From the IMG/VR virus record IMGVR_UViG_3300047476_001386, positions 7,344 through 71,343 of that record: a stretch of DNA of 64,000 nt, one strand, 5' to 3'. This document shows, in pieces, positions 3,511 through 28,435 of the stretch. Each line of letters starts with the position of its first letter. Position 1 is the stretch's first letter. Position numbers and translations under genes: made by a program. The DNA is from a virus. The notes beneath the pieces are model-generated. The model worked only from the letters and a program-made list of their open reading frames with translations. It made no database searches and was not told where the DNA came from.

Positions 3511-3513
3511 CAC

Positions 3514-3541
3514 TTGACTTTGGCCCCCAATGTGATATAAT
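3514..3541 (+). promoter_or_regulatory. sigma70-type promoter
   Basis: TTGACT...TATAAT upstream of an AGGAGG RBS. Confidence 0.7.
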
Positions 3542-3562
3542 GGTTTCCATAGGAGGCAACTT

Positions 3563-3715
3563 ATGAAACTTTCGCGTGGCAATGTTGAGACGCTCATCGA
3601 GCATCTGGAAGACTTCATTATTCAACTAGAGGAAAGGCTGGACGAATGTGACCTGATTACCACACCTGTTGAGGAGGCATATATTGCTGAAGTGCTGCTG
3701 CGGAGCGGACGTTAA
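3563..3715 (+). CDS. small hypothetical protein (50 aa, MKLSRGNVET...)
   Basis: perfect AGGAGG RBS and a promoter upstream. Confidence 0.7.
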   Translation: MKLSRGNVETLIEHLEDFIIQLEERLDECDLITTPVEEAYIAEVLLRSGR

Positions 3716-3910
3716 ACCGCAACGTGCCATAATTACAGAACTTGCTTAGATTGTGGTTTAGGCACGCAAGCGCAAATTTTGTTCGGCTCCTCTGAGCAAG
3801 AGCAATTACGTACTGATTACTAGGAAAGAGCAGTTAGCACAGCTTGATCCGAAGCGCTGTAACACGTAGCGCGCCGGAAAATTTAATTTTAGAAGGGAGC
3901 ACGGATTATA

Positions 3911-4114
3911 GTGGGAAATACCGAGCCAAGACGGTATGAGGTTATCGAAAAGGAAATAATTCTGTTACAGACTGAACTGCGAAAGATTAGAGAAAAGTGC
4001 GAACACACAAACCTATCTAGAAAAGTATTTAGGCAGTGGGGGACTGGCTGGGAACAATATTCCTGCATTGACTGTGGCCGTGAATGGCCCGCAAGAACGG
4101 AGCTGAAGGATTAA
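3911..4114 (+). CDS. small Zn-ribbon protein
   Basis: CxH...CxxCG pattern. Confidence 0.55.
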   Translation: MGNTEPRRYEVIEKEIILLQTELRKIREKCEHTNLSRKVFRQWGTGWEQYSCIDCGREWPARTELKD

Positions 4115-4115
4115 G

Positions 4116-4265
4116 ATGAGTGCAGTTGTAGAAATTACACATATTGAAGAACCCTGTGAACACCATGAAATAGTTCTAATGTATAAGACTGAGAATGAGG
4201 TAGTATACGGATGCCCGGAATGTTATAAAAAGTTTAGGATACCCAATGAACTATATAGTAGCTAA
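4116..4265 (+). CDS. small Zn-ribbon protein (49 aa)
   Basis: CEH...CPEC pattern; AAGGA RBS. Confidence 0.5.
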   Translation: MSAVVEITHIEEPCEHHEIVLMYKTENEVVYGCPECYKKFRIPNELYSS

Positions 4266-4396
4266 ATGCTGGAACTACCATGACGATAGTGTGGTTGTAC
4301 AAGAAGTACTGCCAGAAGTGTATAATTCCGTAGATGAAGCTAAGTATGAGTCTCAGTTTCATGGTAAAGAGTGGCAGGTTTTTGAATTGGTAAAGT

Positions 4397-4972
4397 ATGA
4401 ATAAGAACGCTAAGAAGTATACAGAGTGGGCCCTTAAATCCAACCGGGGCGAAGTTGAAGGGGAGGAATCCAACCGGGGTGAAGTTGACACAATTATCCT
4501 TGCTGAATCCAACCAAGTAGAAGAGCCCAAACGGCGATCAGTTGCTATAGATGAAGAATTCGATCGAATTACAGGTAAGAGTATAATTGAAGAAGAGCTC
4601 ATCATTGACTACCGTAAGCCCGATCTAGTCGATTTTGCCTGCAACATCCTAGGAATTCCTACTCCAGAGCTTCAACGAGGTTACTTCTCTCATTATGCTG
4701 AAGCTGAGCCCGGAATCATCCGAGTTAACTGCCCCGCTGATAAGCTAGCAGAAGTTATATTTCATGAATGTGCTCATCAGTGGCAGTATGAGCATGGTCT
4801 AATCACTCCTTTCTATAGAGGCGTCGCATACGAAGGATCCTACTGGTGGGCTCCTTGGGAAATCGAAGCTAGAGGAATAGAAGGAGCAATTTTTCACGAG
4901 TGGAGCAAATGTACACAGAAAAAGAGGTCGAAGCACTTAAAGCGTACCCTAGCAAGACTGTTGATGAGCTAG
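4397..4972 (+). CDS. zinc metallopeptidase-like protein
   Basis: IFHECAHQWQ (HExxH) followed by PWEIEAR. Confidence 0.7.
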   Translation: MNKNAKKYTEWALKSNRGEVEGEESNRGEVDTIILAESNQVEEPKRRSVAIDEEFDRITGKSIIEEELIIDYRKPDLVDFACNILGIPTPELQRGYFSHYAEAEPGIIRVNCPADKLAEVIFHECAHQWQYEHGLITPFYRGVAYEGSYWWAPWEIEARGIEGAIFHEWSKCTQKKRSKHLKRTLARLLMS

Positions 4973-5187
4973 CCCTTCAGCTAGGGAAATCCAACCGGAG
5001 CATCATAGCAAAGCTATCAAAGATGGGTCTCTACAGAAAAGAGAAGCTCAACAAGGTTGGTCAGCCTATAATGCCTAAGCTAGAAATGGTTGCAGAAATT
5101 GAAAATGCCCTAGGAATAAGTTGTCCAACCCTCGTGAAGTGTGGTAAGGACGATTTGAGGCTAATTATGCAAACTTTATGCGAATAA
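4909..5187 (+). CDS. A2/D3-family HTH DNA-binding protein paralogue
   Basis: LALQLGKSNRSIIAKLSKMGLY resembles the 2350 protein. Confidence 0.6.
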   Translation: MYTEKEVEALKAYPSKTVDELALQLGKSNRSIIAKLSKMGLYRKEKLNKVGQPIMPKLEMVAEIENALGISCPTLVKCGKDDLRLIMQTLCE

Positions 5188-5221
5188 AAAAAGCGGTTAC
5201 GAGAGTAACCGCTTATTTTTT
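5187..5221. terminator. bidirectional intrinsic terminator
   Basis: A-run, AAGCGGTTAC-GAGA-GTAACCGCTT, T-run. Confidence 0.8.
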
Positions 5222-5502
5222 GCTTTGAATTTTGGAGTAAAAATTGTATTGGTGAGAGAATTGGAAATAAAAAAACGGATAAAAAGTAAGTAAATTTTCA
5301 AGTGAAAGCGGTGGGGCCCATGTGTTGTTCATTGAAAACACACTTCGAGCCGTAGATCCTTAGTAATTTGTAAAGCGTTAATTTATAGATTTGTAAGGTG
5401 CTTTAATTTGAGGTCAATTGTATACGAATTTAAAAATTCGCTTTAGTCGTGACCGGTTACAACTTGTTATCAAGGGTGAATCAATTTATATGGCTTGTAT
5501 TC

Positions 5503-15037: not shown

Positions 15038-15424
15038 ATGTACAAGATATGTAAAAGTTGTAATAAAGAAAAATTAAAACAAGAGTTTCATTCTAATGGT
15101 ACCACGACAAGGGGTACCAAAAAATATAAACCAATATGTAAAGAATGCACTAATAAAAATAGTGGACTAATAAAACAGTCAAAAATAAAACAAGTATTGT
15201 CTAGCTTAAATAGAGACTACGCTTGTGAGCTATGTGGATATAATAAAAATTATGCTGCTTTATGCTTTCATCATGTAGACTCATTGCATAAGAGCTTTGC
15301 TATTTCTGAGAAAAGCTGGACAGCTTCTATATCTTCTCTACAACTAGAAATAGACAAATGTGTAGTATTATGTGCAAATTGTCATGCTGAAGTACATAAT
15401 CCTACTTTAGAGAATTCCGTTTAA
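15038..15424 (+). CDS. free-standing HNH endonuclease
   Basis: CxxC...CxxC, CELCGY...LCFHH...KCVVLCANCHAEVH; AT-rich. Confidence 0.85.
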   Translation: MYKICKSCNKEKLKQEFHSNGTTTRGTKKYKPICKECTNKNSGLIKQSKIKQVLSSLNRDYACELCGYNKNYAALCFHHVDSLHKSFAISEKSWTASISSLQLEIDKCVVLCANCHAEVHNPTLENSV

Positions 15425-15718
15425 CATCTATAAAAAACAATATTGGACACCGGGGCAGTACCGGTTACCTCCACCATAGATATACAGGAAGATGCGGCCG
15501 CATAATTAAAGGTATAGTAACCTTGCTACTGTATATTCATCATGGGGGTAAAATAGATCTCGACAATTTTGTGTAATAAATAGACTAGGAATCGGTAAGA
15601 AACGACCGCTAATCAGTTCAAATTTATAACTGCTAACGACAACGATAGCATTGAGGCATACGCTCTAGCAGCGTAAGTACTCTTGGGTTTAGCGCCACCT
15701 AGAAACAGAACGGGGCAA
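15411..15718 (+). ncRNA. ssrA: circularly permuted two-piece tmRNA; tag (A)ANDNDSIEAYALAA at 15632-15676
   Basis: acceptor piece with GGCAGTA T-loop ending TACCTCCACCA (15476) precedes the coding piece starting GGGGGTA (15544); G3-U70; 3' pseudoknot-like GGGTTTAGCGCCACCTAG...GGGGC. Confidence 0.9.
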
Positions 15719-15770
15719 CAACAAGCCGTCCAAGATTACCTTGGACGGCTTACCCTTCTGGAGTTTGAAT

Positions 15771-16902: not shown

Positions 16903-16978
16903 GCCGGCTTAGCTCAGTAGGTAGAGCGTCTGTTTTGTAATCAGAATGTCGTGGGTTCGATTCCTGCAGCCGGCACCA
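16903..16978 (+). tRNA. tRNA-Thr(TGT)
   Basis: cloverleaf with encoded CCA. Confidence 0.95.
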
Positions 16979-16983
16979 TTTAG

Positions 16984-17045
16984 TAATAGGGGTCCTTGCG
17001 GCCCCTATTATTTTTCTTGACATTTATAGCTTCGGAGCCTATAAT
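16984..17045 (+). terminator. terminator hairpin followed by a TTGACA-N17-TATAAT promoter (17017-17045)
   Basis: TAATAGGGG...CCCCTATTA-TTTTT, then a consensus promoter. Confidence 0.75.
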
Positions 17046-17051
17046 AGTCTC

Positions 17052-17612
17052 ATGAACATTTTTGTACTAGACGAAGATTTTGATACCTGTGCGGAATACC
17101 ATATTGACAAGCATATTGTCAAGATGCCTCTAGAAGCCGCGCAGCTTCTTTGCTCCGCACATTGGATTAGTCAAGTAGGTTTTATTCCCCGCAAGATTAC
17201 TCCTACCGAACGTGCCGAAGCACAAAAGCTAGTTACTAGTGATTTTTATGGTATGACCCACTATAATCATCCTTGTGCTATCTGGGCTCGTTCTAGTCTA
17301 GATAACTTCGAGTGGCTACATTGCTATGCCAATGCTCTCAATTCAGAGTATGGCTATCGCTACGGAGGTAAGTCTCATAAGTCACTAGGAGTTGTCAACC
17401 GACTTCCCATTCCGAATATTCCTCGGCTTGGCCTTACTCCATTTGCTCTAGCTATGCCGGACGAACTTAAGTCTGACAATGCAATTGAGTCCTATAGAAT
17501 GTTTTATATGCTTGACAAGAGTCCTTTTGCTTCTTGGAAGTATAGGTCTCCCCCACCTTGGTGGGACTCCTCAATTACTGATGGAGTAGAAACGAGGATT
17601 AGTAGACGATGA
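17052..17612 (+). CDS. pyrimidine-dimer DNA glycosylase / DenV-related family protein
   Basis: MNIFVLD...A.YH.DKH.VKM.LE.AQLL...H.NHPC.IW motif. Confidence 0.75.
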   Translation: MNIFVLDEDFDTCAEYHIDKHIVKMPLEAAQLLCSAHWISQVGFIPRKITPTERAEAQKLVTSDFYGMTHYNHPCAIWARSSLDNFEWLHCYANALNSEYGYRYGGKSHKSLGVVNRLPIPNIPRLGLTPFALAMPDELKSDNAIESYRMFYMLDKSPFASWKYRSPPPWWDSSITDGVETRISRR

Positions 17613-18073
17613 TTATTCCCGAATATAAGGATTTTCTTAAGCTTAAGGCCGAAATCCAACCGCAGCGTGCATTAATTTACGATGATGGTTGGACTGAAAA
17701 TCCCGATATTCGGAGTACCGAAGTGCGTTTCATTACTAGAGACGCCTATCCTGAAGTGTTCAGGATTATGCAAGAATACGGCCGCCAAAATCAGGCCCGC
17801 TGTGGTATTGATCGAGTCCTCCAGATCAAAGACCATATTCAGCTTTCTACGTACCATCCAGGGGACTTTTATGGATGGCACAAGGACGCTCGGCTCCTGT
17901 CCTGCTCTTTACTACTTACAGATGGTTTTACCGGAGGTAGGCTAGAGTTTCGTGACTGGGGTGGAACCCTGAAAAAGAAAGCTGGGCGTGCCGTATTCTT
18001 CCCTAATGTTGAACATAGAGTCCGCCCAGTACTGTCTGGTGTGCGAGACTCCCTAGTAGTGTGGTGGCAATGA
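17609..18073 (+). CDS. 2OG-Fe(II) oxygenase
   Basis: WHKD...H.V.PV.SG.R.SLV.W. Confidence 0.85.
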   Translation: MIIPEYKDFLKLKAEIQPQRALIYDDGWTENPDIRSTEVRFITRDAYPEVFRIMQEYGRQNQARCGIDRVLQIKDHIQLSTYHPGDFYGWHKDARLLSCSLLLTDGFTGGRLEFRDWGGTLKKKAGRAVFFPNVEHRVRPVLSGVRDSLVVWWQ

Positions 18074-18519
18074 CAGTAGACAATGAACTTTTGAGAGCGA
18101 TGGGGCTTCCCCCCGGTAAGGCAGGTCTCTCCCGACTGGTGCATGGTAAGACAGGTCCTGCACAGGCCTGTAGCCCGGCAAATTCTGGAGCAAGCGGTAC
18201 TGTAGGGGTTAAGTACGACTCTAATAAGCCCCGCATGGATTTGCTTCCTCCGCGTGCTCTACTTGAGGTCGCTAAAGTATTAAGCTTTGGTGCTGCCAAG
18301 TATGCCCCCGGTAATTGGAAACGTGTGGATAACCTTCAAGCTCGGTATACCGCTGCCGCCCTTAGGCACATTGCAGATCATATGATTGATCCAAATGCGG
18401 TCGATGAAGAATCTCACATTGATACTCTAGCGCATGCTATTTGTTGTTTGATGTTCAAATTGGAAGATAAACTTGAAAAAGATCAAAGTACAAGCACACG
18501 AGCGACTGACGAAGGCTAA
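18070..18519 (+). CDS. dATP/dGTP diphosphohydrolase-domain protein (DUF5664-like)
   Basis: GVKYDSNKPRMDLLP...VLSFGAAKY...NW...AALRH...D.ES...LAHA. Confidence 0.8.
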   Translation: MTVDNELLRAMGLPPGKAGLSRLVHGKTGPAQACSPANSGASGTVGVKYDSNKPRMDLLPPRALLEVAKVLSFGAAKYAPGNWKRVDNLQARYTAAALRHIADHMIDPNAVDEESHIDTLAHAICCLMFKLEDKLEKDQSTSTRATDEG

Positions 18520-19165
18520 TATCGAGCGCGTTATCAAGCTGCTCGAAGACCCCAAGCCTATCACTAAGAAGGCTGCCTATGAAATTCTAAATATCAAGGA
18601 AAACCCCTCTCGCCTCGCTAAGATTATTGAGGAATTCAAAGCTGAAAAGGCCTATGAAGCCTCTCGCCGCGAGAAGAACCGAGGCAAGCCCGCTGATCCT
18701 AGTGAAATTCAAGCAATCATTGAACTTTATCTGGCTGGTGAAGGAACTACCGAGATTGCTCAAAGGCTCTTTCGTAACTCCTCATTCGTTACAGCAATTC
18801 TAGAGCGTATCGGAGTTCCTAAACGTCCTACTGGAGACGCTCGATTTGAAAAGGCAATTCTGCCTGAAAATTGCGTCGCCGATAGCTTTGAAAAGGGAGA
18901 AATTGCTTGGTCCGCTAAGTATCATGCTCCTTGTCGTATCGAGCAAGTTCTTGATGCGGAATTTCTAGCTAAAAATCCCGGTATTTCCGGAAACTATGAC
19001 TACCCTTGCTACAGGATTTATGTTACTGAAGCAATGGAAGACATTCCACCTCGTTTTGCTGGTGTTAGAGTTGGTGGACACTTTGCATATGCTTACGCGT
19101 ACGATCTCGGTAAATTGACTCACCTTCAGGAATATGGGATTAATCTTGACAAACTTAGTTCATAA
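18473..19165 (+). CDS. conserved phage protein with HTH
   Basis: TKKAAYEIL; GEGTTEIAQRLFRNSSFV HTH. Confidence 0.7.
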   Translation: MKKIKVQAHERLTKANIERVIKLLEDPKPITKKAAYEILNIKENPSRLAKIIEEFKAEKAYEASRREKNRGKPADPSEIQAIIELYLAGEGTTEIAQRLFRNSSFVTAILERIGVPKRPTGDARFEKAILPENCVADSFEKGEIAWSAKYHAPCRIEQVLDAEFLAKNPGISGNYDYPCYRIYVTEAMEDIPPRFAGVRVGGHFAYAYAYDLGKLTHLQEYGINLDKLSS

Positions 19166-19514
19166 GCATCTTATCGTTCGAGCCACTCTTGGCTACTGCC
19201 CCGATAACCCTGAGTGGGTTAAGGAATGGCTGGCTCATCTAGTCAATGTTATTGACATGAAGATTCTTAGTGGTCCTCATGTAGCTCGCGTTGACAATGT
19301 TGTAGGCAATATCGGTTGCACTGGTGTAGTCATTATCGAGACTAGCCATATTGCGGTTCATTTCTGGGAAGAAACGGGCCTTATGCAACTTGATGTTTAT
19401 ACGTGTGGGCAATTTAATAAGGACCTTATTTTTAGGGAACTTGCCTGCCTAGAGCCTACGCATATGGATTTTAAGTTCCTCGATAGGGAATACGGCCTGA
19501 TCGAGGTAATTTAA
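19134..19514 (+). CDS. S-adenosylmethionine decarboxylase proenzyme-like protein
   Basis: KHLI...G.TGVVIIETSHIAVHFW...QLDVYTC. Confidence 0.8.
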   Translation: MGLILTNLVHKHLIVRATLGYCPDNPEWVKEWLAHLVNVIDMKILSGPHVARVDNVVGNIGCTGVVIIETSHIAVHFWEETGLMQLDVYTCGQFNKDLIFRELACLEPTHMDFKFLDREYGLIEVI

Positions 19515-19517
19515 CTC

Positions 19518-19570
19518 TTGACTTTGCTGCTCGGCTCCCTTATACTATATGGACAGTAAGGGAGCCGAGC
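19518..19570 (+). promoter_or_regulatory. promoter (TTGACT-N17-TATACT) overlapping a 14-bp inverted repeat whose right arm holds the RBS
   Basis: GCTCGGCTCCCTTA (19529-19542) / TAAGGGAGCCGAGC (19557-19570). Confidence 0.7.
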
Positions 19571-19571
19571 G

Positions 19572-19826
19572 ATGTTGCAATATTGTTATAATCCAGTAGA
19601 AACTCCCGCCTATGTATGGGCTAGAAGCCAAGACCCGAATCTTCATAGAATTTATTCGCAAGCCGGAATTGATGCCGGCCACGCAGACTATAGCCCCGCC
19701 ATTCGCTACCGAGCAGAAGGCTATGAAGCGGGCTATGATGCGGCTCTTGCCGAAGGATACTTGTGGATTTTGGCTAGTGCTTATTTGGGTTGGACGCCTG
19801 TAAATAGAGAACAAAATGAAACTTAA
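19572..19826 (+). CDS. hypothetical protein
   Basis: GGGAG RBS and its own promoter. Confidence 0.65.
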   Translation: MLQYCYNPVETPAYVWARSQDPNLHRIYSQAGIDAGHADYSPAIRYRAEGYEAGYDAALAEGYLWILASAYLGWTPVNREQNET

Positions 19827-20214
19827 GATGTATACCATTTTTGCCCGAGAAAGTATTGTCAAAATGAACGGCAATCGTGGCAAGATGTGCACGCAAGCAG
19901 GGCACGCGTATCTTCATGCTTTCTGGGACTCCGCAAAGAGGTTTCAAGGCGAGCATGGATTTGCAGAGGATCAACCTAGCGATGCAGAGCGCTATCAAGA
20001 CAGCGATCATGCATATAAGATTACTCTGGTTGTAGATACTGTAGAAGAACTTGTTGTACTAAGAAATAAATACCAGCCTATCTGTGGTGTAAGTCTTGTA
20101 ACAGATGCTGGGTTTACAGTGTTTAATGAACCCACCACTACTTGCCTAGGCCTTGGTCCAATTAGTGAAAACGATATTGGCGAAGATTTGAAGTCCCTCA
20201 AACTTTTTATGTGA
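19816..20214 (+). CDS. peptidyl-tRNA hydrolase type 2 (Pth2)
   Basis: GKMCTQAGHA...KITL.V...DAGFT....TTTCLGLGP...LKL. Confidence 0.85.
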   Translation: MKLKMYTIFARESIVKMNGNRGKMCTQAGHAYLHAFWDSAKRFQGEHGFAEDQPSDAERYQDSDHAYKITLVVDTVEELVVLRNKYQPICGVSLVTDAGFTVFNEPTTTCLGLGPISENDIGEDLKSLKLFM

Positions 20215-20217
20215 CCT

Positions 20218-20394
20218 ATGAAAATTGAAATTCCCGACGAAGAAGCAGACTACATTACGGTACAAAATCTAAAAGAGTGGCGGGATGAGCTGCCAAATGT
20301 CCAAGGAATGTTCTCTCTGGACCCTGAAGAAGATCGAGAACAGATTGCTATTCTTGTAGACGCATTTGATAAGGTTATTGCCTGGTACAGTTAA
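20218..20394 (+). CDS. small hypothetical protein (58 aa)
   Basis: open frame between Pth2 and the tRNA cluster. Confidence 0.55.
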   Translation: MKIEIPDEEADYITVQNLKEWRDELPNVQGMFSLDPEEDREQIAILVDAFDKVIAWYS

Positions 20395-20395
20395 C

Positions 20396-20479
20396 GGGGG
20401 TGTGGTGTAAAGGTAGCCACGACGGACTTAAAATCCGTTTCCGTATGGAGTGTCGGTTCGAGTCCGACCACCCCTACCA
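20396..20479 (+). tRNA. tRNA-Leu(TAA)
   Basis: class II cloverleaf, CCA. Confidence 0.95.
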
Positions 20480-20483
20480 ATTC

Positions 20484-20558
20484 GGGTGATTAGCTCAGAG
20501 GTAGAGCAACGGGCCCTTAACCCGTCGGTCCTCGGTTCAATCCCGAGATCACCCTCCA
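20484..20558 (+). tRNA. tRNA-Lys(CTT), atypical C33 and U73
   Basis: anticodon loop CC-CTT-AA, CCA. Confidence 0.85.
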
Positions 20559-20559
20559 T

Positions 20560-20634
20560 GCCCGGTTAGCTCAGTGGTAGAGCGTCTCCTTTACACGGAG
20601 AGGGTCGGCGGTTCAAGCCCGTCACCGGGTACCA
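20560..20634 (+). tRNA. tRNA-Val(TAC)
   Basis: cloverleaf, CCA. Confidence 0.95.
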
Positions 20635-20643
20635 AAATTTTTC

Positions 20644-20672
20644 TTGACTTATTGGTCATTATACCCTATAAT
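20644..20672 (+). promoter_or_regulatory. sigma70-type promoter
   Basis: TTGACT-N17-TATAAT. Confidence 0.75.
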
Positions 20673-20694
20673 GGTTTTTCAAATGAGGAATGAG

Positions 20695-20841
20695 ATGTAT
20701 ACAAGCTTTGTGAACCGGGGTATTTACGTTTTTACGGCTATTGAAGGTTATCGGAAGGCTTTTAAGAGGCGCAAGCAACTTCACTGGCTGCCCTCTCCGG
20801 CTCGGAAGCCGAAGTTTCCGGTACCTAAGTTCGGTATCTAA
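20695..20841 (+). CDS. small basic protein (48 aa)
   Basis: GAGGA RBS after the promoter. Confidence 0.5.
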   Translation: MYTSFVNRGIYVFTAIEGYRKAFKRRKQLHWLPSPARKPKFPVPKFGI

Positions 20842-20917
20842 GGGGAATTAGCTCATTTGGTAGAGCGTCTGCTTTGCACGCAGAAGGCGAGCGGTTCGAT
20901 CCCGCTATTCTCCACCA
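20842..20917 (+). tRNA. tRNA-Ala(TGC)
   Basis: cloverleaf, G3-U70, CCA. Confidence 0.95.
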
Positions 20918-20921
20918 ATTA

Positions 20922-21680
20922 TTAGGTAGCTATGGTATCGCGTCCGGCACTCCGGAATCGCCATCCCACAGCAATTACCTGCACTAACAAGTCAGGGCTG
21001 GCTGGCACGCTGCAACGTGTCGATCCGCGATTGCAGAGCGGGGTAGGTTAGTGAAAAATTTTAGGGCCTAAGCTTTTTGCCGAAGGATAACCAAAGGGCC
21101 ACCGTACGGGACCCCCCTAAATAGGCGGCCCTGAAAAGGTGTCCGTTTCCCGCAAGGGAGTGACTATCTTGAGGCACCGGGCTTAGCGCGCTTACCTCAA
21201 GATATTCTAGGTCTCCATGGCAGCCGCAAGGTCCCCACGGAGTTCCGAAAACAGTGATTAGCTCAACGGAAGAGCCTTCGGGTTCTTGGTTCGAATCCAA
21301 GATCACTGTCTCCGCAAGTAGTTTACTACTTGCCCACCTTAGGTTCCGGCCTAAGGATTAAGCTGACAACGCTGGGCACAGGGTTGTTAGTTTGCCCCCG
21401 AAAGAGTTGAGTGTGGCAGCACTTAAACTCCAAGTACCTGCTGCCGTAGGTAGCGATGCGGAATCGTTGGGGAAGAATAGTCAAGCAGTTGAAAAGAACT
21501 ATTCGCCGCCTGAAAAGGTCCACGCGTGATGCGAGATAACCAAGTGTTTACTGCGACATGGAGCTAAGTATCTTACCACTTATGCCTCCATTAGTTTAGG
21601 TAAGATGCTGTCTAGCTGCCCGCCGGCTAGAACTAAGTTGTAACATGAGGCCCCTGGGCTAAGTGTAGGGCGGGCCAGAT
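20922..21680 (+). ncRNA. ORF-free tract of consecutive structured RNA modules between tRNA-Ala and tRNA-Leu
   Basis: closing stems AGGTAG/TTACCT, CACTAAC/GTTAGTG, AGGGCC/GGCCCT, TATCTTGAGG/CCTCAAGATA, GCAAGTAGT/ACTACTTGC, CCTTAGG/CCTAAGG. Confidence 0.55.
21251..21313 (+). ncRNA. mini tRNA-like element lacking an anticodon arm
   Basis: acceptor ACAGTGA/TCACTGT, D arm TAGCTCAACGGAAGAGC, CTTCGG in place of the anticodon arm, T arm CTTGG-TTCGAAT-CCAAG. Confidence 0.7.
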
Positions 21681-21683
21681 TAT

Positions 21684-21766
21684 GCGAGTATGGCGAAATT
21701 GGTAGACGCACCAGATTTAGGTTCTGGCGGGCAACCGTGTGGGTTCGACTCCCTCTACTCGCACCA
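21684..21766 (+). tRNA. tRNA-Leu(TAG)
   Basis: class II cloverleaf, CCA. Confidence 0.95.
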
Positions 21767-21808
21767 AGGTCCCCTTTGGGGATTTAAGTCCTGCTTCTAG
21801 GGCAGGCA

Positions 21809-21957
21809 ATAGTTTGTAGTCGTCAGCGTAAAATTGGGAGTAGGGAAAGCAACCTGGAAAGAGGGACTCATAGTACAATGAGTTGCAGAATCCTAAACAC
21901 CTCCACGGTTCGAAACGTGATAGAGGAGACGCAATACCTCGGCTACAAATTCTATTT
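21809..21957 (+). ncRNA. ~150-nt structured RNA closed by a long stem, with an internal T-loop hairpin
   Basis: TTTGTAGTCG/CGGCTACAAA closing stem; CACG-GTTCGAAA-CGTG; ACTCAT/ATGAGT. Confidence 0.5.
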
Positions 21958-21996
21958 TTACTTATACAATATTTGTATAGCTACAAATAGAATTAT

Positions 21997-22071
21997 TGGT
22001 TAGTAGCTCAATGGTAGAGCTCTCGGCTGTTAACCGAGCGGTTGTAGGTTCGAGTCCTACCTAGCCAGCCA
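21997..22071 (+). tRNA. tRNA-Asn(GTT)
   Basis: cloverleaf, CCA. Confidence 0.95.
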
Positions 22072-22078
22072 ATAATAT

Positions 22079-22153
22079 GTCGGTGAGGGAAACTGGTAAT
22101 CCGCGGGTCTCCAAAACCTTGAGAAGTAGGTTCGATTCCTACCGCCTTCGCCA
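22079..22153 (+). tRNA. tRNA-Trp(CCA) with mismatched acceptor stem
   Basis: loop CT-CCA-AA, canonical T arm, CCA; two acceptor mismatches. Confidence 0.8.
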
Positions 22154-22157
22154 TTAT

Positions 22158-22247
22158 GGAAGCGTGGCAGAGTTTGGTTTATTGCATCAGTCTTGAAAAC
22201 TGACGAAGGTAACACTTCCGTGGGTTCGAATCCTACCGCTTCCGCCA
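22158..22247 (+). tRNA. tRNA-Ser(TGA)
   Basis: class II cloverleaf, CCA. Confidence 0.95.
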
Positions 22248-22267
22248 TTTTTAACTAGGAAATAGCT

Positions 22268-22852
22268 ATGTCCGCTGTATTTTTAACGTCCGATACGCAT
22301 TTTGGACACGCTAATATATGTAAGTTTACAAACTATGATGGAACACCTCTAAGACCTTGGGATGATGTGGCCCAAATGGATGAGGATATGGTAAAGCTAT
22401 GGAACGATACAGTTCGTCCTAATGATAAAGTTTATCATCTCGGGGACGTAGTAATCAATCGTAAGAGCCTAGCCATTCTAGACCGTCTTAATGGAGATAA
22501 GGTTCTTATTAAGGGCAATCACGATATTTTTCAACTTTCTGATTATACTAAGTATTTCAGAGACATTCGTTCTTATCATGTTATGAATGGTTGTATTTTA
22601 TCACATATTCCTGTCCATAAGGATAGTATTGCACGTTTTGGGGCTAATATCCATGGACACCTTCATGGTAACCGAGTTCGCAAAGTACGAGACGTCGATG
22701 TAAAAACTGGCGGCTTACTGTATAGTGACCAAATTGACCCGGATTATTTCTGTGTATGTGTTGAGCATACTGGATTTAAGCCTATTCTTTTTGAAGATGT
22801 ACTAACGCTTATTGAAAGCCAAGGTGGCCGGATCGGATTTAGGAATAAGTAA
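22268..22852 (+). CDS. metallophosphoesterase
   Basis: SDTHFGH, HLGD, GNHD and HGHLH motifs. Confidence 0.9.
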   Translation: MSAVFLTSDTHFGHANICKFTNYDGTPLRPWDDVAQMDEDMVKLWNDTVRPNDKVYHLGDVVINRKSLAILDRLNGDKVLIKGNHDIFQLSDYTKYFRDIRSYHVMNGCILSHIPVHKDSIARFGANIHGHLHGNRVRKVRDVDVKTGGLLYSDQIDPDYFCVCVEHTGFKPILFEDVLTLIESQGGRIGFRNK

Positions 22853-22853
22853 T

Positions 22854-23096
22854 ATGCAGAATAAGATGTACTTTCTATCGAAAGAGTCAACTCCTAGTTG
22901 GACTTTTTATGCGGATGATTTGTCTGTCATTCTGAAGCAACTAGAGCCTTGTATTTGTGAAGATTGCTGGGAATACGAAACGTTATTTGCAGCGCAACCC
23001 TATATAGAGCTTGATACTAAGGATAAGATTAACGCGCTTCTTGCTACTTCTTGTGGCTGCCAATACTACTTTGGAGAAGATTATGCCCAAGCCTAG
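22854..23096 (+). CDS. hypothetical protein
   Basis: CICEDC...CGC Cys motifs. Confidence 0.55.
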   Translation: MQNKMYFLSKESTPSWTFYADDLSVILKQLEPCICEDCWEYETLFAAQPYIELDTKDKINALLATSCGCQYYFGEDYAQA

Positions 23097-23226
23097 GAAG
23101 AATGAAACTGAGCAGCAATTTATGAAGCGCTGCGTTCCAGCCCTTGTCAAGGAAGGAAAGGCCCAAGATCAAGCAGTTGCAGTTTGTCTCACTATGTGGT
23201 CAAACAAACCCAAAAATAAGTCTTGA
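23083..23226 (+). CDS. small protein (MPKPRKNETEQQFMKRC...QAVAVC)
   Basis: GGAG RBS; recognisable small phage helical motif. Confidence 0.6.
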   Translation: MPKPRKNETEQQFMKRCVPALVKEGKAQDQAVAVCLTMWSNKPKNKS

Positions 23227-23257
23227 CTTTGTAGGTTTTATACCCTATAATACATAA

Positions 23258-23461
23258 ATGAATTGCGAAGAACATACAAAACTTCGACTACAATACCTTT
23301 ACGGGTATACTTGTGAAGTAGTCTCCTTTGACGATGCTTATGCACGGCTAAAGGGGACTAATTCTTTTCAGGTATTTAGAAACCATCGAAGACTTAGAAA
23401 TGATGGTTTTCTAATCAATGGCGTTTATCACCACAAAGGGAGGCAACAATCAGTAGCGTAA
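23258..23461 (+). CDS. hypothetical protein
   Basis: follows TTGACT-N17-TATAAT (23223-23251); possibly leaderless. Confidence 0.5.
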   Translation: MNCEEHTKLRLQYLYGYTCEVVSFDDAYARLKGTNSFQVFRNHRRLRNDGFLINGVYHHKGRQQSVA

Positions 23462-23463
23462 AT

Positions 23464-23655
23464 ATGGTAGCTCTCAACGTTTTTGTGCGTGAAAGGGCCG
23501 AACTAGCTAGGCAAATTATCGAACTTGAAAACGTGGAATATGCTAATGCCACGGATAATAACCTAGCTGACGATGAACGATGGACTCTTATTGAGGTCCA
23601 TAAGTATTTTGATACTAGAATTAAGGAAATTCAGGGCCTTTTAGGAGGTGAATAA
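23464..23655 (+). CDS. hypothetical protein
   Basis: ORF packing. Confidence 0.55.
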   Translation: MVALNVFVRERAELARQIIELENVEYANATDNNLADDERWTLIEVHKYFDTRIKEIQGLLGGE

Positions 23656-23671
23656 TGGCCCTGAATACTAT

Positions 23672-23745
23672 GCTTCTATAGCTTAATGGCAGAGCAAACG
23701 ACTGATAATCGTTCGACCCAAGTTCGATTCTTGGTAGAAGCACCA
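23672..23745 (+). tRNA. tRNA-Ile(GAT)
   Basis: cloverleaf, CCA. Confidence 0.9.
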
Positions 23746-23748
23746 ATT

Positions 23749-23824
23749 GTGCTGGTGGGCGGAAAGGCTACGTCTCGGTCTGCAAAACCGAATCATGAGG
23801 GTTCGAGTCCCTCCCGGCACTCCA
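23749..23824 (+). tRNA. tRNA-Cys(GCA)
   Basis: cloverleaf, U73, CCA. Confidence 0.9.
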
Positions 23825-23825
23825 T

Positions 23826-23901
23826 TGGGGGATGGTGCAACTGGTAGCACGCCGGATTTTGATTCCGGAGGTTGTGGGTTCGAAACCTACTCCCTCAGCC
23901 A
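23826..23901 (+). tRNA. tRNA-Gln(TTG)
   Basis: cloverleaf, U1-A72, CCA. Confidence 0.9.
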
Positions 23902-23908
23902 ATTTTTT

Positions 23909-23983
23909 GTTAGGGTAGCATAACGGTAGTGCTCTGGTCTCATACGCCAGTCTGTGTTGGTTCGAGTCCAACCTCTAACACCA
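23909..23983 (+). tRNA. tRNA-Met(CAT)
   Basis: loop CT-CAT-AC, CCA. Confidence 0.85.
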
Positions 23984-23984
23984 T

Positions 23985-24061
23985 GCACGCATCGTCTAAA
24001 TGGTTTAGGATTACACTCTTTCAAGGTGTAGGTGCGGGTTCGAGTCCCGTTGCGTGTTCCA
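23985..24061 (+). tRNA. tRNA-Glu(TTC)
   Basis: loop CT-TTC-AA, CCA. Confidence 0.85.
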
Positions 24062-24076
24062 TTTTAAGGATAGAAA

Positions 24077-24337
24077 ATGTCTGATGAAGCTACTAGATAC
24101 GTAATACACGTAGTATATAGAGATTACTCTGAGCAAACCAAGAGATTTACTATGTCGCCTGAAAAGGCGCATGAACTAGCAGAAAAGGTTTTGATGTCAG
24201 ATAATGTTAGAGCAATTACTCTTGGTGAAGTTCTACAATATGGACATAAGTCTTTTACAGAGGACTTCGACGTTTTATGGCCGTGTAGCTCAGAGGAAGA
24301 GCATTCGCCTGTCGAGCGAAAGGTCGGGGTATCGTAA
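24077..24337 (+). CDS. hypothetical protein whose 3' end runs into tRNA-Asp
   Basis: AAGGA RBS; the stop codon lies in the tRNA T-loop. Confidence 0.6.
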   Translation: MSDEATRYVIHVVYRDYSEQTKRFTMSPEKAHELAEKVLMSDNVRAITLGEVLQYGHKSFTEDFDVLWPCSSEEEHSPVERKVGVS

Positions 24338-24353
24338 TCCCTCACGGTCGCCA
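24279..24353 (+). tRNA. tRNA-Asp(GTC) with non-canonical T-loop
   Basis: loop CT-GTC-GA; T-loop ATCGTAA; GCCA end. Confidence 0.8.
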
Positions 24354-24360
24354 TTATTAA

Positions 24361-24437
24361 CGGGTATTAGCGCAGTCTGGTAGCGCATCTGCTTTGGGAG
24401 CAGAGGGTCGTAGGTTCGAATCCTACATACCCGACCA
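24361..24437 (+). tRNA. tRNA-Pro(TGG)
   Basis: cloverleaf, CCA. Confidence 0.95.
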
Positions 24438-24439
24438 AT

Positions 24440-24493
24440 TTAGGGGGCGTGGGGACGCTAGTGCACTAACCAAGTTCGACTCTTGGCCCCTAA
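24440..24493 (+). ncRNA. second mini tRNA-like element
   Basis: TTAGGGG/CCCCTAA stem, small GCGT/ACGC and TAG/CTA hairpins, T arm CCAAG-TTCGACT-CTTGG. Confidence 0.55.
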
Positions 24494-24494
24494 T

Positions 24495-24584
24495 TTTATT
24501 ACGCGAACACACTGATACCTACAGGGAACTTAATCTGCTCGGGTATAGTAGACTGTGAACTGACAGTGTGTTCACGTAATAAAA
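24495..24584 (+). ncRNA. ~90-nt RNA closed by a 20-bp stem
   Basis: TTTATTACGCGAACACACTG / CAGTGTGTTCACGTAATAAA (one mismatch). Confidence 0.5.
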
Positions 24585-24586
24585 TT

Positions 24587-24662
24587 GTATCTCTGGTGTA
24601 CGTGGTCGGCACGTGGGACTGAAAATCCTGAGGTTAGGGTTCGATTCCCTGGGGATGCACCA
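24587..24662 (+). tRNA. tRNA-Phe(GAA)
   Basis: cloverleaf, CCA. Confidence 0.9.
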
Positions 24663-24663
24663 A

Positions 24664-24755
24664 CGTCCTATAGCTTAATGGTAGAGCGGTGCCCTTATAA
24701 GGCATGAGCAGCAGATGGCTGCACGATCTCGGTTCGAGTCCGAGTAGGACAACCA
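24664..24755 (+). tRNA. atypical tRNA with TAT anticodon (nominal Ile), long variable arm and C1-A72 mismatch
   Basis: GTGCC-CTTATAA-GGCAT; GCAGC/GCTGC extra arm; ACCA end. Confidence 0.75.
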
Positions 24756-24760
24756 TTTCC

Positions 24761-24836
24761 GGGTCTAGGGCCATCTGGGAATGGCAAGTGACTTTTAATC
24801 ACTTCGTTTTGGGTTCGAATCCCATTAGACCCACCA
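24761..24836 (+). tRNA. tRNA-Lys(TTT)
   Basis: loop CT-TTT-AA, CCA. Confidence 0.9.
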
Positions 24837-24837
24837 A

Positions 24838-24915
24838 GCTTCGGTAGCTCAACGGAACAAGAGCACTACGCTACGGACGTAGGGGTTGAGGGTTCGAATC
24901 CTTCTCGAAGCGCCA
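24838..24915 (+). tRNA. tRNA-Arg(ACG)
   Basis: cloverleaf, CCA. Confidence 0.9.
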
Positions 24916-24922
24916 CAATTAC

Positions 24923-24993
24923 GCCTAAGTAGCTTAATGGTAAAGCAGCGCATTGTGGATGCGCATATAAAAGTTCGATTCTTTTCTTGGGTA
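24923..24993 (+). tRNA. tRNA-His(GTG): no G-1, G1-U72, A73, no encoded CCA
   Basis: GCGCA-TTGTGGA-TGCGC; acceptor GCCTAAG/CTTGGGT-A. Confidence 0.85.
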
Positions 24994-24994
24994 C

Positions 24995-25080
24995 GGAAGG
25001 TGGGCAGGCTGGTAATGCAGCAGATTGCTAATCTGTACAACCTTAGGGTTGAGTGGGTTCGATTCCCACACCTTCCGCCA
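24995..25080 (+). tRNA. tRNA-Ser(GCT)
   Basis: class II cloverleaf, CCA. Confidence 0.9.
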
Positions 25081-25129
25081 AAATTTTTCTTGACTTTTTA
25101 GTTAAACTGATATATTATATAAAAATATC

Positions 25130-25204
25130 GCGGACATGGTATAGGGGATGTGCCCAAGCCTTCCAAGCTTGAGAGGACCGGTTCGATGCCGGCTGTCCGC
25201 TCCA
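25130..25204 (+). tRNA. tRNA-Gly(TCC)
   Basis: cloverleaf, CCA; TTGACT promoter at 25090. Confidence 0.9.
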
Positions 25205-25210
25205 ATTTAC

Positions 25211-25303
25211 GGGTGTGTTGCAGATATGGTGTGTTCTGCTTGGGACTGTAAATCCCATCCCACTGGGTAAACAATCTAGGTTCGACTCCTAGCACACCCA
25301 CCA
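25211..25303 (+). tRNA. tRNA-Tyr(GTA)
   Basis: class II cloverleaf, CCA. Confidence 0.9.
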
Positions 25304-25308
25304 TATTT

Positions 25309-25384
25309 GCGCTGATAGCTCAATGGTTAGAGCCGACCGCTCATAACGGTCTGGTTGTGGGTTCGAGTCCCTCTCGGCGCACCA
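25309..25384 (+). tRNA. tRNA(CAT), probably Ile2 (lysidine type)
   Basis: GACCG-CTCATAA-CGGTC arm typical of Ile2. Confidence 0.85.
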
Positions 25385-25385
25385 T

Positions 25386-25460
25386 GCTCCCTTAGCTCAA
25401 TGGAGAGAGCAGCAGGTTTCTACCCTGTAGATGAGGGTTCGATTCCTTCAGGGAGTGCCA
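25386..25460 (+). tRNA. tRNA-Arg(TCT)
   Basis: cloverleaf, CCA. Confidence 0.9.
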
Positions 25461-25503
25461 ATTTAATACCGGAAGTGTGTTACTTCCGAAGTTTGGAGAT
25501 ACA

Positions 25504-25800
25504 ATGGCTAATAGTGAGCACACTACAAGGCAATTTGATTTTAGTTCAGGACAAACAGTAGCAATTGGAGCCACAAGCGCCCGCTCTACCGTTATTCCTT
25601 TTGAAGAAGTTTTAGTTACAGCTAGTATTGCTTGCTATATTTCAGTGGGCGGTTCTACAGTAACTGCAGCAAACAATGGTAACTCAATGGCACTCGCTGC
25701 CAATGAAAAGATTTTTCTACGGATTCCTATGAACTCCTATATTGCGGTTCTTCAAGCTTCCGCAGCTGGAACTCTAAGGATTCTTCCGGTACAGCTATAA
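25504..25800 (+). CDS. small beta-rich hypothetical protein
   Basis: GGAGA RBS; Ala/Ser/Thr/Val-rich, virion-protein-like composition. Confidence 0.7.
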   Translation: MANSEHTTRQFDFSSGQTVAIGATSARSTVIPFEEVLVTASIACYISVGGSTVTAANNGNSMALAANEKIFLRIPMNSYIAVLQASAAGTLRILPVQL

Positions 25801-25809
25801 AAATATTCC

Positions 25810-25838
25810 TTGACTTTTCTAGGTCAATCGGTTATAAT
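25810..25838 (+). promoter_or_regulatory. sigma70 promoter driving the large non-coding unit
   Basis: TTGACT-N17-TATAAT. Confidence 0.8.
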
Positions 25839-25844
25839 ACTTAT

Positions 25845-27060
25845 ATTGAGAGTGAGGACTACAAAGCCAACCTCTCAATAATAGATAGGCAAATCTAATA
25901 AATACCTATCTAGAGTAGCTCGCCCGCGAATTGCATAAGCGGACCTTATGGAATGCATCTACCGGCTCTGATGGCCATTATCCGGGGACCTGACCGTAGT
26001 AAACTACTCTACTATTGAAGTAGATGAAAAACAATAGGCTTTCCTATATAAGGTTTAGCGGCGCGCTTGTAAAAGTATTTCTACACATTAACGACCCGTT
26101 TGGCTAATGAACCTACCGGTCTAGTAAGTATGCTCAGATGAGCTCTACCTCAGTCCAGCCCTGGAAACACTGATGGATATCTCTTTATTGTTCGACTCGG
26201 CCGGCTCTTTATATCCGGTATCAGCGAATAGAAAACTACTTGCGGGAAGTTCCTAAGTAATTAGGCTTCTTTGGGTACAGCCGAGAGCTGTATCTTAAAA
26301 AGTCTAATAGCCGCGTGTGGCAAGAGCTGTAGTGATACAGTGACAGAAAGCTAGCGATCCTTATAGCTTTCGACGTTGAAAAACGGTTAATCACGCAGGG
26401 CAACTTCTTAAAAGACTTCCCTAAAAAGGAGTCTGCTTCCTACGATATGCCGAACAAGTGGCACTCGGGCAGAGTGTCATTTCCTACCGCAAATAGGATA
26501 CGGATGCAACTTATCTAAGAAGTGAGAGTTACTGCCCCAGGTACAATAGTCTGAGTCTAGCAAACAAAGGCGTGTACCAGTTGTTAGGATAAACGTGTAA
26601 AAGCGTTCCGGTTCTAATGACCACTTAGTAGGGTGCCAACCGAAAAGTACGTAGGTGTGTGGTATTTTGATCTTCAAAAGAGATCGGAGCTACTGGCAAG
26701 CACATCTGCAGGATCTAGTCTTTACTAAACGCTATATGAAGCAATCAAAAGCAAAAGACTTGCCAGGCATTTGAAGTAAGAAGCCAAACACTCCAGTGAA
26801 AACAATGGAGTCATGTAGTAACCGCAAGTTACTTCATGTTGATTGAAAATGCTGTCCTAGAGGTTTAGCGGCCTCGAACTGCCTTAAGCAGAGGGTAGAC
26901 TATCAGTCGAGTATTCAGATGCTTAGCGCTACAGCCTGCGCTATATAAATTGGGCGGCTTTGACGGGATAGGTGTTACACCTGGATACGCACGAAACCCT
27001 ATAAGGAATACAGTGCTAAGACCCGTTGTACCAAGCAGTAATCTCATGCTTGGCTTAATT
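25845..27060 (+). ncRNA. candidate giant (~1.2 kb) structured ncRNA, possibly GOLLD/ROOL class
   Basis: no plus-strand ORF of 60 aa or more; own promoter and terminator; many hairpins; next to a tRNA array. Confidence 0.7.
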
Positions 27061-27061
27061 C

Positions 27062-27085
27062 TAGCCCCATTTTGGGGCTATTTTT
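27062..27085 (+). terminator. intrinsic terminator
   Basis: TAGCCCCA-TTT-TGGGGCTA-TTTTT. Confidence 0.8.
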
Positions 27086-27097
27086 GTAAGGAAAATC

Positions 27098-27547
27098 ATG
27101 TTAGAATCTGCTAAGAAAGCTATTAAAAATAGCTCAAAAGAAAGTTCCGTTTATATTGGTTGCGACTCTGTTAGATTTAAGAAGGAGGGTCGTTGGTACG
27201 CCCGATACTCTACAGTAGTTGTTCTCCATATTGATTCTAATAGAGGTTGTTCTCTATTCTACGACACTGTAGTTCTTCCGGATTATGGTAACATGAAGCA
27301 GCGACTGTTAATGGAAGTTATGAATACTGTTAATGTGGCGCTAGAATTGCTAGATTCGGTTGGAGATAGGCACCTAGAAATCCATCTTGACCTAAATCAA
27401 AACCCTAAGCATAAATCAAATGTTGCAGTAAAGGAAGCCCTATCATATGTAAAAAGTATGCTACCTTATGTTGAAACTAGGATCAAGCCTTTTGCTTTTG
27501 CTGCGGCACATTGTGCCGACCATCTGGCCCGAGGTAAGAAAATATAG
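27098..27547 (+). CDS. RNase H-like YkuK (DUF458) family protein
   Basis: VYIGCDS...RLLMEV...EIHLDLN...S...KP.AFAA...AD. Confidence 0.8.
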   Translation: MLESAKKAIKNSSKESSVYIGCDSVRFKKEGRWYARYSTVVVLHIDSNRGCSLFYDTVVLPDYGNMKQRLLMEVMNTVNVALELLDSVGDRHLEIHLDLNQNPKHKSNVAVKEALSYVKSMLPYVETRIKPFAFAAAHCADHLARGKKI

Positions 27548-27682
27548 TTCTTGACAACTTGGTTGTTCTATAGTATTATATCTTTTCAATGAGAGGTATT
27601 GATGGGCGACCGTTTTTATCAAGCACAAATCAAAGAACTGGGCACTTGCCCAGGTTACACAGGAAAAGGAAAGAAAAAGAAA

Positions 27683-28042
27683 ATGGCATGGGACGACACT
27701 AAGAAGCAAAAGGCTATCAGCATGTATACGGATGCTGGTCCTACTCCCGAAACGTCTATGGAAATTGTCAAGGACATTGCCGAAGATCTTGACGAAAGCC
27801 CTAATGGTGTTCGTATGATCCTGACTAAGGCAGGTGTTTACGTTACTAAGGGCCCTGCGAAGGCTGGCTCAGCTGCCCCTAAGGGTGACGGTGCTCCTCG
27901 TGTTAGCAAGGAAGCTGCCCACGCTAAGCTTACCGCTGCTATTAATGACATTGGAGCCGATGTTGACTCAGAGATTATCTCTAAGCTGACTGGTAAGGCT
28001 GCTCTGTACATTGCAGATGTTCTTGCTCAAGCTAGTAAGTAA
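27683..28042 (+). CDS. T5 D3-like DNA-binding protein
   Basis: MAWDD..K..AI.MY....PTPETSMEIVK.IAE....SPNGVRMIL.KAGVYV. Confidence 0.8.
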   Translation: MAWDDTKKQKAISMYTDAGPTPETSMEIVKDIAEDLDESPNGVRMILTKAGVYVTKGPAKAGSAAPKGDGAPRVSKEAAHAKLTAAINDIGADVDSEIISKLTGKAALYIADVLAQASK

Positions 28043-28051
28043 TCTTCACCA

Positions 28052-28078
28052 GCCCGCTCAGTTTTTAACTGAGCGGGC
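28052..28078 (+). terminator. hairpin after the D3-like gene
   Basis: GCCCGCTCAG...CTGAGCGGGC. Confidence 0.55.
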
Positions 28079-28144
28079 ATTAGTGTTTTCCGAAGCATGT
28101 AAGGAGCAAAGAGGTTTGCCAACCTACTGATAAGGAGTAACGCT

Positions 28145-28435
28145 TTGAAAAAAGAAGATTTGAGAGCAGCATTGCTAGAGCATGGAGACTGCATTATTGA
28201 TTACCGAAGTGCTGAGTCACAGAAGTTAAAGTATAATGTATGTACCCTAGATTTCTCTACGCCATATGTTGCCACCAAGCAAAATAGAGCCAAAGAATCT
28301 GATGATACAATCCTGGTATTTTGCTGGGATACAGACTCTTTTAGATTATTAAAACCAGCGAACGTAGTAAAAGTAGAACCTCTAGCACACGCACTTCAGC
28401 GTAGTCTAGAGAGGAGTAATAATGTTACTCCATGA
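28145..28435 (+). CDS. conserved T5-like protein (SH3/WYL-like)
   Basis: YNVCTLDF.TPY...FCWDTDSFR; syntenic with the T5-like block; TTG start after TAAGGAG. Confidence 0.75.
   Translation: MKKEDLRAALLEHGDCIIDYRSAESQKLKYNVCTLDFSTPYVATKQNRAKESDDTILVFCWDTDSFRLLKPANVVKVEPLAHALQRSLERSNNVTP

Follow-up and report, generated by a model that had tools for sequence, protein, structure and literature searches.

The closest described relatives of the RNA reported here are the GOLLD RNAs, two of which have been solved: that of env-38 with a length of 833 nucleotides (nt), which assembles into a 14-mer cage, and that of Streptococcus agalactiae with a length of 700 nt, which forms a 12-mer (PMC12286853, PMC12990946). 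In Mycolicibacterium, a tRNA is embedded in the GOLLD linker J13/15 (PMC6582537, PMC12990946), and one published idea is that the cages hold or present cargo such as these linker-embedded tRNAs (PMC12286853). The ROOL RNAs (RF03087) are further large, ornate and cage-forming RNAs of phages and prophages that occur near tRNA genes. Here, we describe a non-coding unit at positions 25845-27085 (plus strand) of a 64,000-nt stretch of viral DNA from IMG/VR, in the following called the window. As in the solved GOLLDs, a variable 5' domain is followed by the P13 hairpin, an A-rich linker and a conserved 3' domain; the site beside a phage tRNA island and the size of the canonical part (745-806 nt) also agree. 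Unlike them, it begins with a further 400-460 nt of conserved RNA, here referred to as module A, which brings the unit to about 1.24 kb. We regard it as rather likely that the unit is a genuine GOLLD preceded by a lineage-specific functional RNA module, which may be cut from the GOLLD.

The Rfam model of GOLLD (RF02032) covers 26650-27050 on the plus strand over its full length (model positions 1-416 of 416) with 158.3 bits, the gathering cut-off being 150, and with E values from 1.8e-42 to 4.6e-46 that varied with the size of the search. In the alignment, the P13 hairpin (about 26650-26709), the A-rich linker (about 26710-26765, without a tRNA according to the alignment and ARAGORN) and the pseudoknotted 3' domain, which reaches up to 27050 and ends in the GUAAUCUCA loop (27037-27045), can all be followed, and the long-range helices of GOLLD are visible. 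Infernal cmscan revealed no other Rfam family in the unit at gathering score or at E <= 1, and self-cleaving ribozymes, introns, RNase P, OLE and HEARO gave no rows there. For ROOL, neither a sequence nor a structure match was obtained, in the window at gathering score and in 25700-27200 at E <= 1. Comparison of the whole unit with 50,697 phage records via blastn gave no match. A preliminary description of the window, made from its letters alone, had postulated a giant, structured RNA of the phage, akin to GOLLD and placed at the tRNA island, and this kinship is borne out by the full-length match above cut-off. The same description had left room for a new class, which finds no support. That the whole unit is a new giant RNA class unrelated to GOLLD and ROOL, or else a relative of ROOL, might be argued from a GOLLD score only 8 bits above the cut-off and from the two thirds of the unit that lie outside the Rfam model, but is highly improbable, considering that the model is matched from end to end (E 4e-44), that relatives score 170-178 bits, that homologues of its 5' domain occur at other GOLLD loci and that ROOL was not matched at any threshold used.

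Relatives were sought via YkuK, the protein encoded next to the unit, with 522 homologues, among them P0003-P0012 with 69-78% identity, and an alignment of 25 leading to 160 loci of related freshwater phages, 80 each of metagenome and viral origin. GOLLD was present in 14 of the approximately 292 stored loci, which comprise the window's own locus and seven groups of identical or overlapping loci, or six different sequences if L002 and L003 are merged. These two near-identical IMG/VR contigs share the layout of our unit and score 177.9 (L002) and 174.6 bits (L003) with the GOLLD model; L207, L152, L177, L215 and L226 are five further distinct GOLLD loci. A search with a GOLLD-linker pattern proved too unspecific: among 122 stored loci, six carried the second motif at the right distance, one being the window's own (L001), and four of the six, scanned with Rfam (L025, L029, L095 and L106), contained no GOLLD at gathering score. 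Between the window and L003, 23 both-sided and 15 one-sided changes that keep pairing were counted over 26650-27050, in a comparison of two sequences only, and compensatory changes are thus found in the conserved helices of the 3' domain. RNAalifold z values for the window and L003, with column shuffles as controls, amount to -8.9 on the plus and -2.7 on the minus strand for this part and to -9.0 and -3.4, respectively, for 26245-26649, as would be expected of a structured RNA on the plus strand.

The canonical, variable GOLLD 5' domain was located at 26306-26649 (plus strand). A nhmmer profile of the 5' domains of L207 and L226, built without the window, matches 26306-26662 with an E value of 7.9e-14 and L003 at the corresponding place, with nothing further upstream; profiles including L152, L177 and L215, both their own and a joint one of all five comparators, gave no match. 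RNAalifold on four sequences of this domain predicts 53 pairs, 29 of them with both-sided changes, and the canonical start GCCGCGTG is common to the window, L003, L207 and L226. Directly upstream lies a junction of two hairpins (26245-26305, plus strand; fold z -3.9), with two compensatory changes and one wobble change relative to L003. Since a loose alignment of these hairpins with the two that open other GOLLD 5' domains is possible, the junction may belong to module A or to the GOLLD, and because the profile begins at 26306, the canonical start is placed between 26245 and 26306. The canonical part accordingly measures 745 nt (from 26306) or 806 nt (from 26245) up to 27050. It fits the GOLLD length of about 700-850 nt, which is descriptive and not a formal criterion, and the whole unit exceeds it. 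The last 745-800 nt of the unit are a genuine, ordinary GOLLD RNA.

On the DNA, the unit is bounded by a sigma-70-type promoter (TTGACT-17-TATAAT, 25810-25838, plus strand) with 11 of 12 consensus matches and by an intrinsic terminator (27062-27085, plus strand), whose 8-bp stem (27062-27080, five G-C pairs) precedes a T run. The transcription start is predicted at about 25845, 7 nt after the -10 hexamer, which gives a unit of about 1.24 kb from promoter to terminator and about 1,206 nt to the end of the GOLLD model. Promoter-like sites are common in this region, with six in 24800-28000 versus 5.4 expected from shuffles. Both promoter hexamers are kept in L003, L207 has identical hexamers ahead of its GOLLD, and the terminator stem and T tract are identical in L003. 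No promoter-like or terminator-like site was found on the plus strand within 25838-27062. The unit holds no plus-strand open reading frame (ORF) of at least 60 amino acids, the longest ones having 31, 39 and 54, and the longest stop-to-stop frame in 25801-26330 has 42 codons when all six frames are considered. In this respect, the preliminary description was accurate, having noted a consensus promoter and an intrinsic terminator around some 1.2 kb free of such frames. The stems it listed are all present in the sequence as well; GATCTT/GAGATC, the CATG...CGCAA...CATG hairpin and the 3' hairpin AAGCA-GTAATCTCA-TGCTT are consensus elements of GOLLD.

The excess length of the unit becomes apparent from the distance to P13, counted either from the predicted start, which is set 7 nt past the -10 hexamer, or from the tRNA that precedes the GOLLD. 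It is 805 nt in the window and 845 nt in L003, compared with about 477 nt in L207, about 413 nt in L177, about 377 nt in L152, at most 456 nt in L215 and about 543 nt in L226, which has a weak promoter. Taken together with the lengths of the two solved GOLLDs (PMC12990946) and the 5' region of the env-38 GOLLD, given as residues 1-420 (bioRxiv 10.1101/2024.12.08.627333; PMC12286853), these distances lead to the conclusion that the GOLLD of the window, with 745-806 nt, is of normal size and is preceded by an additional block on its 5' side. The earlier expectation of an enlarged GOLLD or ROOL relative therefore holds for GOLLD and for the length, but neither for ROOL nor for a general inflation of the RNA; the excess is one discrete 5' block, which may, as weakly suggested so far, be a separate RNA after processing. 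The GOLLD of L207 agrees with ours in the promoter hexamers, in the order promoter-GOLLD-terminator-ykuK and in a 5' domain that is homologous from GCCGCGTG on; it differs in having about 100 nt before the canonical start, without module A. At 2575-2645 (plus strand), this leader of L207 can be drawn as a degenerate cloverleaf, in which a 7-bp stem resembles an acceptor stem and a hairpin containing the GGTTCAATTCC motif resembles a T arm. The cloverleaf ends 12 nt before the canonical GOLLD start and was not called as a tRNA by ARAGORN or Rfam; it may act as a signal for processing.

Module A (25845-26244, or to 26305; plus strand) occupies the space between the promoter and the canonical GOLLD 5' end and is a conserved, non-coding and probably structured RNA element, as judged by identity, compensatory changes and RNA contigs. 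It is absent from the GOLLD loci L207, L152, L177, L215 and L226, was carried only by the L002/L003 groups among the stored YkuK-linked loci, and was not found elsewhere in the window. When five stretches of the window were used as exact patterns to scan IMG/VR, only the near-identical contigs behind L002 and L003 were retrieved; four additional matches in IMG/VR and four in a scan of genome contigs were dismissed as chance after a nhmmer check. Neither in the window nor in L003 did module A match any Rfam family at E <= 10 beyond noise. The sub-threshold rows are at chance level with 18-20 bits versus cut-offs of 43-55, and the single row common to both sequences belongs to a fungal snoRNA model on the minus strand (19.8 and 13.8 bits). 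ARAGORN and Rfam gave no tRNA or tRNA-like match in it. That module A arose by duplication of the GOLLD 5' domain was rejected, as no profile match was obtained. The sequence AGGTTTAGCGGC, noted early on to occur twice, was indeed found at 26051 and 26861, but a functional pairing or duplication was discarded: the repeat is not kept as such in L003 and is at chance level, because four 12-mers of module A recur in the 64-kb window at E 1.4.

Within the neighbourhood, module A is the best conserved stretch between the window and L003. Its identity of 87.4% (347/397 positions) compares with 79.6% for the nucleotides of the ykuK gene, 65.2% for the GOLLD 3' domain, 63.7% for the ORF upstream of the promoter and 58.4% for the canonical GOLLD 5' domain. 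A run of about 75 nt at 26181-26256 (plus strand) is identical in both phages, with the surrounding RNA differing by 13-40%. Module A is hence not drifting, as follows from its overall identity, from this invariant block and from a conservation above the nucleotide identity of the adjacent protein gene.

The consensus fold of the two module A sequences contains seven pairs that are changed on both sides; 60 column shuffles yielded 1.3 on average and never more than 4. The alifold z of the plus strand is -2.8. In the short local hairpins, changes on one side turn U-A into U-G or G-C into G-U when read on the plus strand. The stems TATTGAGAG/CTCTCAATA and TAGATAGG/CCTATCTA are kept in L003 with two changes of U-A to U-G and one of G-C to A-U, and short hairpins at the 5' end of module A stay paired by changes of these two kinds; the outer pair of the stem TAGAGTAG/CTACTCTA is broken there. 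L003 carries a 26-nt insertion inside the hairpin at window positions 26038-26062 (alignment columns 266-296) and a tip that is 4 nt longer in the hairpin 26148-26175, which becomes a GUAA loop in the variant of sequencing run X8; such variation at the tips of hairpins with a constant frame is a typical trait of structured RNAs. Altogether, the evidence for a fold of module A is modest, and the folding strand is not settled. We take the plus strand as the functional one, since the conserved promoter points into module A, the changes in the local hairpins fit, and its behaviour in RNA libraries matches that of the GOLLD part.

This behaviour was followed in sequencing runs, 22 of which were listed; 20 hold at least part of the stretch, including seven filed as RNA. 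Seven runs hold at least half of the stretch's words, and three of them may be the source of this DNA. Contigs of three RNA runs from three studies (X4, X8 and X9) and of the DNA run X10 were placed on 24800-28300. In X4, two RNA contigs cover 25856-26244 with a depth of 153 and 26318-27025 with a depth of 121, while five other listed contigs in the flanks have depths of 2-5.6. The RNA contigs of X8 cover 25928-26246 and 26408-27029 and represent a variant with 16 substitutions and two insertions; those of X9 cover 26326-26621 and 26611-26993. In metatranscriptome contigs, module A is represented no less well than the GOLLD part, and the junction (26245-26305) is covered by no listed RNA contig of X4, X8 or X9. 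The contig ends of two studies (X4 at 26244, X8 at 26246) lie within 2 nt of each other at the boundary of module A and GOLLD, inside the 75-nt invariant run, and the left end of the X4 contig (25856) lies 11 nt inside the predicted start. At 25856, 26244 and 27025, the X4 contigs run into loose letters, all in one orientation, which we take to be Illumina adapter. The coinciding contig stops weakly hint at an RNA end near 26244, as processing would produce.

Read in another way, the unit would be one unprocessed GOLLD of 1.2 kb with an enlarged 5' domain, and module A would be a part of the cage, either as cap layer, as plug of the axial pore or as inner payload. Such an RNA would be in line with a single promoter, a single terminator and no signals in between, with the similar depth of both X4 contigs, and with the finding that GOLLD 5' domains vary and set the oligomer number (PMC12990946); furthermore, no contig was seen with a joint or an alternative start. 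We regard this possibility as being on the unlikely side, for the two studies agree in their contig ends and no listed RNA contig bridges 26244-26318, module A has no sequence relation to canonical 5' domains, and its identity of 87% is unlike the 58-65% of the GOLLD domains. Conserved pairing between module A and the GOLLD core was also rejected, as five complementary 8-mers were found versus 6.15 expected and none is common to L003.

Several points weigh against our reading of module A as a functional plus-strand RNA separated from GOLLD. Its alifold z is better on the minus strand (-4.2). Folded alone, the plus strand is no better than shuffles (z -0.94; 23 of 100 fold as well), and the minus strand is (z -2.93). 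Based on the minimum free energy structure of the window only, 18 of 33 changed pairs are broken in L003, and the one-sided changes in predicted pairs split into nine plus-only and six minus-only, in a strand test that is circular and weak. Module A is carried by only two independent sequences and the variant of about 2% in run X8, so that there is little power to see covariation, and its high identity could partly stem from a recent exchange of the block between the two phages. As to the contigs, they cannot prove RNA ends, strand or level and were therefore used only for the far better representation of the unit than of its flanks in RNA libraries and for the weak hint of an RNA end near 26244. 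X9 has no listed contig on module A, such gaps being no evidence of absence, and X10 has none on 26000-27564 that would allow a comparison with DNA; the gap at 26245-26317 might have arisen because the assembly broke off at a hairpin that varies between strains.

The weak thermodynamic support on the plus strand, the better fold of the minus strand and the small number of relatives, together with the fact that about 100 nt suffice as a leader in L207, would also suit a module A that is not a functional RNA at all, be it a transcribed spacer, a remnant of a decayed gene or tRNA, or a DNA element subject to read-through, such as an origin or a protein-binding region. We consider this improbable. 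A conservation above that of the adjacent protein gene over 397 positions, including the invariant block, both-sided changes that exceed all 60 shuffles, and a high-depth RNA contig covering module A all argue for function at the RNA level. No tRNA or tRNA-like remnant was recognised. An origin or a decayed gene, named in the preliminary description as the explanations that would overturn its proposal, were both rejected: module A has no iterons and no direct repeats except two 12-mers at chance level, and 25801-26330 holds no ORF remnant longer than 42 codons.

Returning to the reading that we prefer, a GOLLD preceded by a functional RNA module, we propose that the GOLLD promoter transcribes module A and GOLLD as one unit directly behind an island of 26 tRNA genes, the GOLLD gene having gained module A as a functional RNA element. 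Module A would then either be cut from the GOLLD between 26244 and about 26310 or stay on each protomer; the cut is put forward tentatively. By analogy, GOLLDs inside tRNA arrays, for example that of L215, would likewise have to be released from their neighbours. The GOLLD part would fold into separate 5' and 3' domains and, during infection, assemble into an RNA-only cage of 10-14 copies. Judging by homology with the solved GOLLDs, the GOLLD of the window should indeed form a cage (PMC12286853, PMC12990946). It is conceivable, if unlikely, that module A is a new phage non-coding RNA which serves as the 5' payload of GOLLD, tethered to each protomer or released beside the cage.

The IMG/VR virus record behind the window has a length of 71 kb and an estimated completeness of 69%. 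The DNA polymerase encoded there shares 44% identity with the enzymes of T5-like phages of Aeromonas, Proteus and Pantoea, and the carrier of the unit is a distant T5-like freshwater phage. ARAGORN and Rfam identified the 26 tRNA genes of the island at 16903-25460 (plus strand), the end of which lies 385 nt upstream of the predicted start of the unit; a position in a phage or prophage, usually at a tRNA cluster, is characteristic of the GOLLD family. Among these tRNAs, one with the anticodon TAT, called as Ile by ARAGORN, has a long extra arm and a length of 92 nt (24664-24755, plus strand). Just upstream of the island, a permuted, two-piece and phage-encoded tmRNA was found at 15368-15720 (plus strand) with 116 bits for the Rfam model tmRNA_permuted and 97 bits for alpha_tmRNA, which was not called by ARAGORN. 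Permuted tmRNAs are also present in two unrelated IMG/VR loci fetched by chance, at 5218-5418 (minus strand) of L025 and at 4984-5185 (plus strand) of L095.

Between the tRNA island and the promoter lies an ORF of 107 amino acids (25477-25800) without a Pfam match. On the other side, the gene of a YkuK/DUF458 RNase H-like protein (27098-27547, plus strand; Pfam PF04308, E 3.3e-20) starts 13 nt past the T run of the terminator, and genes for DNA polymerase, helicase, ligase and ribonucleotide reductase lie downstream. As there is no promoter-like site between terminator and ykuK, the first one on the plus strand being at 27551, ykuK would be expressed only by read-through of the GOLLD unit. The order GOLLD-terminator-ykuK is common to the window, L003 (ykuK at 4001-4447) and L207 (ykuK at 3501-3950). 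In four other GOLLD phages, ykuK lies 1.4-2.4 kb from the GOLLD, which sits inside the tRNA island.

The nearest known case to module A is the tRNA embedded in an internal linker. In our set, L215 (6334-6406) and L226 (669-739, plus strand) each contain a full tRNA gene in the GOLLD linker after P13. These GOLLDs resemble ours in having extra RNA cargo within the unit, which is longer than the core fold; their addition is a tRNA of about 73 nt in an internal linker, whereas the window has its addition at the 5' terminus, with six times that size and no resemblance to a tRNA. No GOLLD with a large and conserved 5' extension other than a tRNA was found described in the GOLLD literature searched, which included the portions of PMC12286853 and PMC12990946 consulted.

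If module A were a mere leader, the finding would amount to one more GOLLD gene. If, on the other hand, it were a payload, it would be the first large non-tRNA RNA found travelling with a GOLLD cage, and its strict conservation would be due to a partner, for example an RNA of the host or the phage or a protein like the YkuK-type nuclease encoded right behind the unit, or else to self-processing at the invariant block by the break at 26244. A GOLLD gene with a separate conserved 5' RNA of 400-460 nt offers a concrete construct with which cage formation, RNA placement and cutting can be studied. The unit shows GOLLD to be present in distant T5-like freshwater phages and is abundant in metatranscriptome assemblies of lakes.

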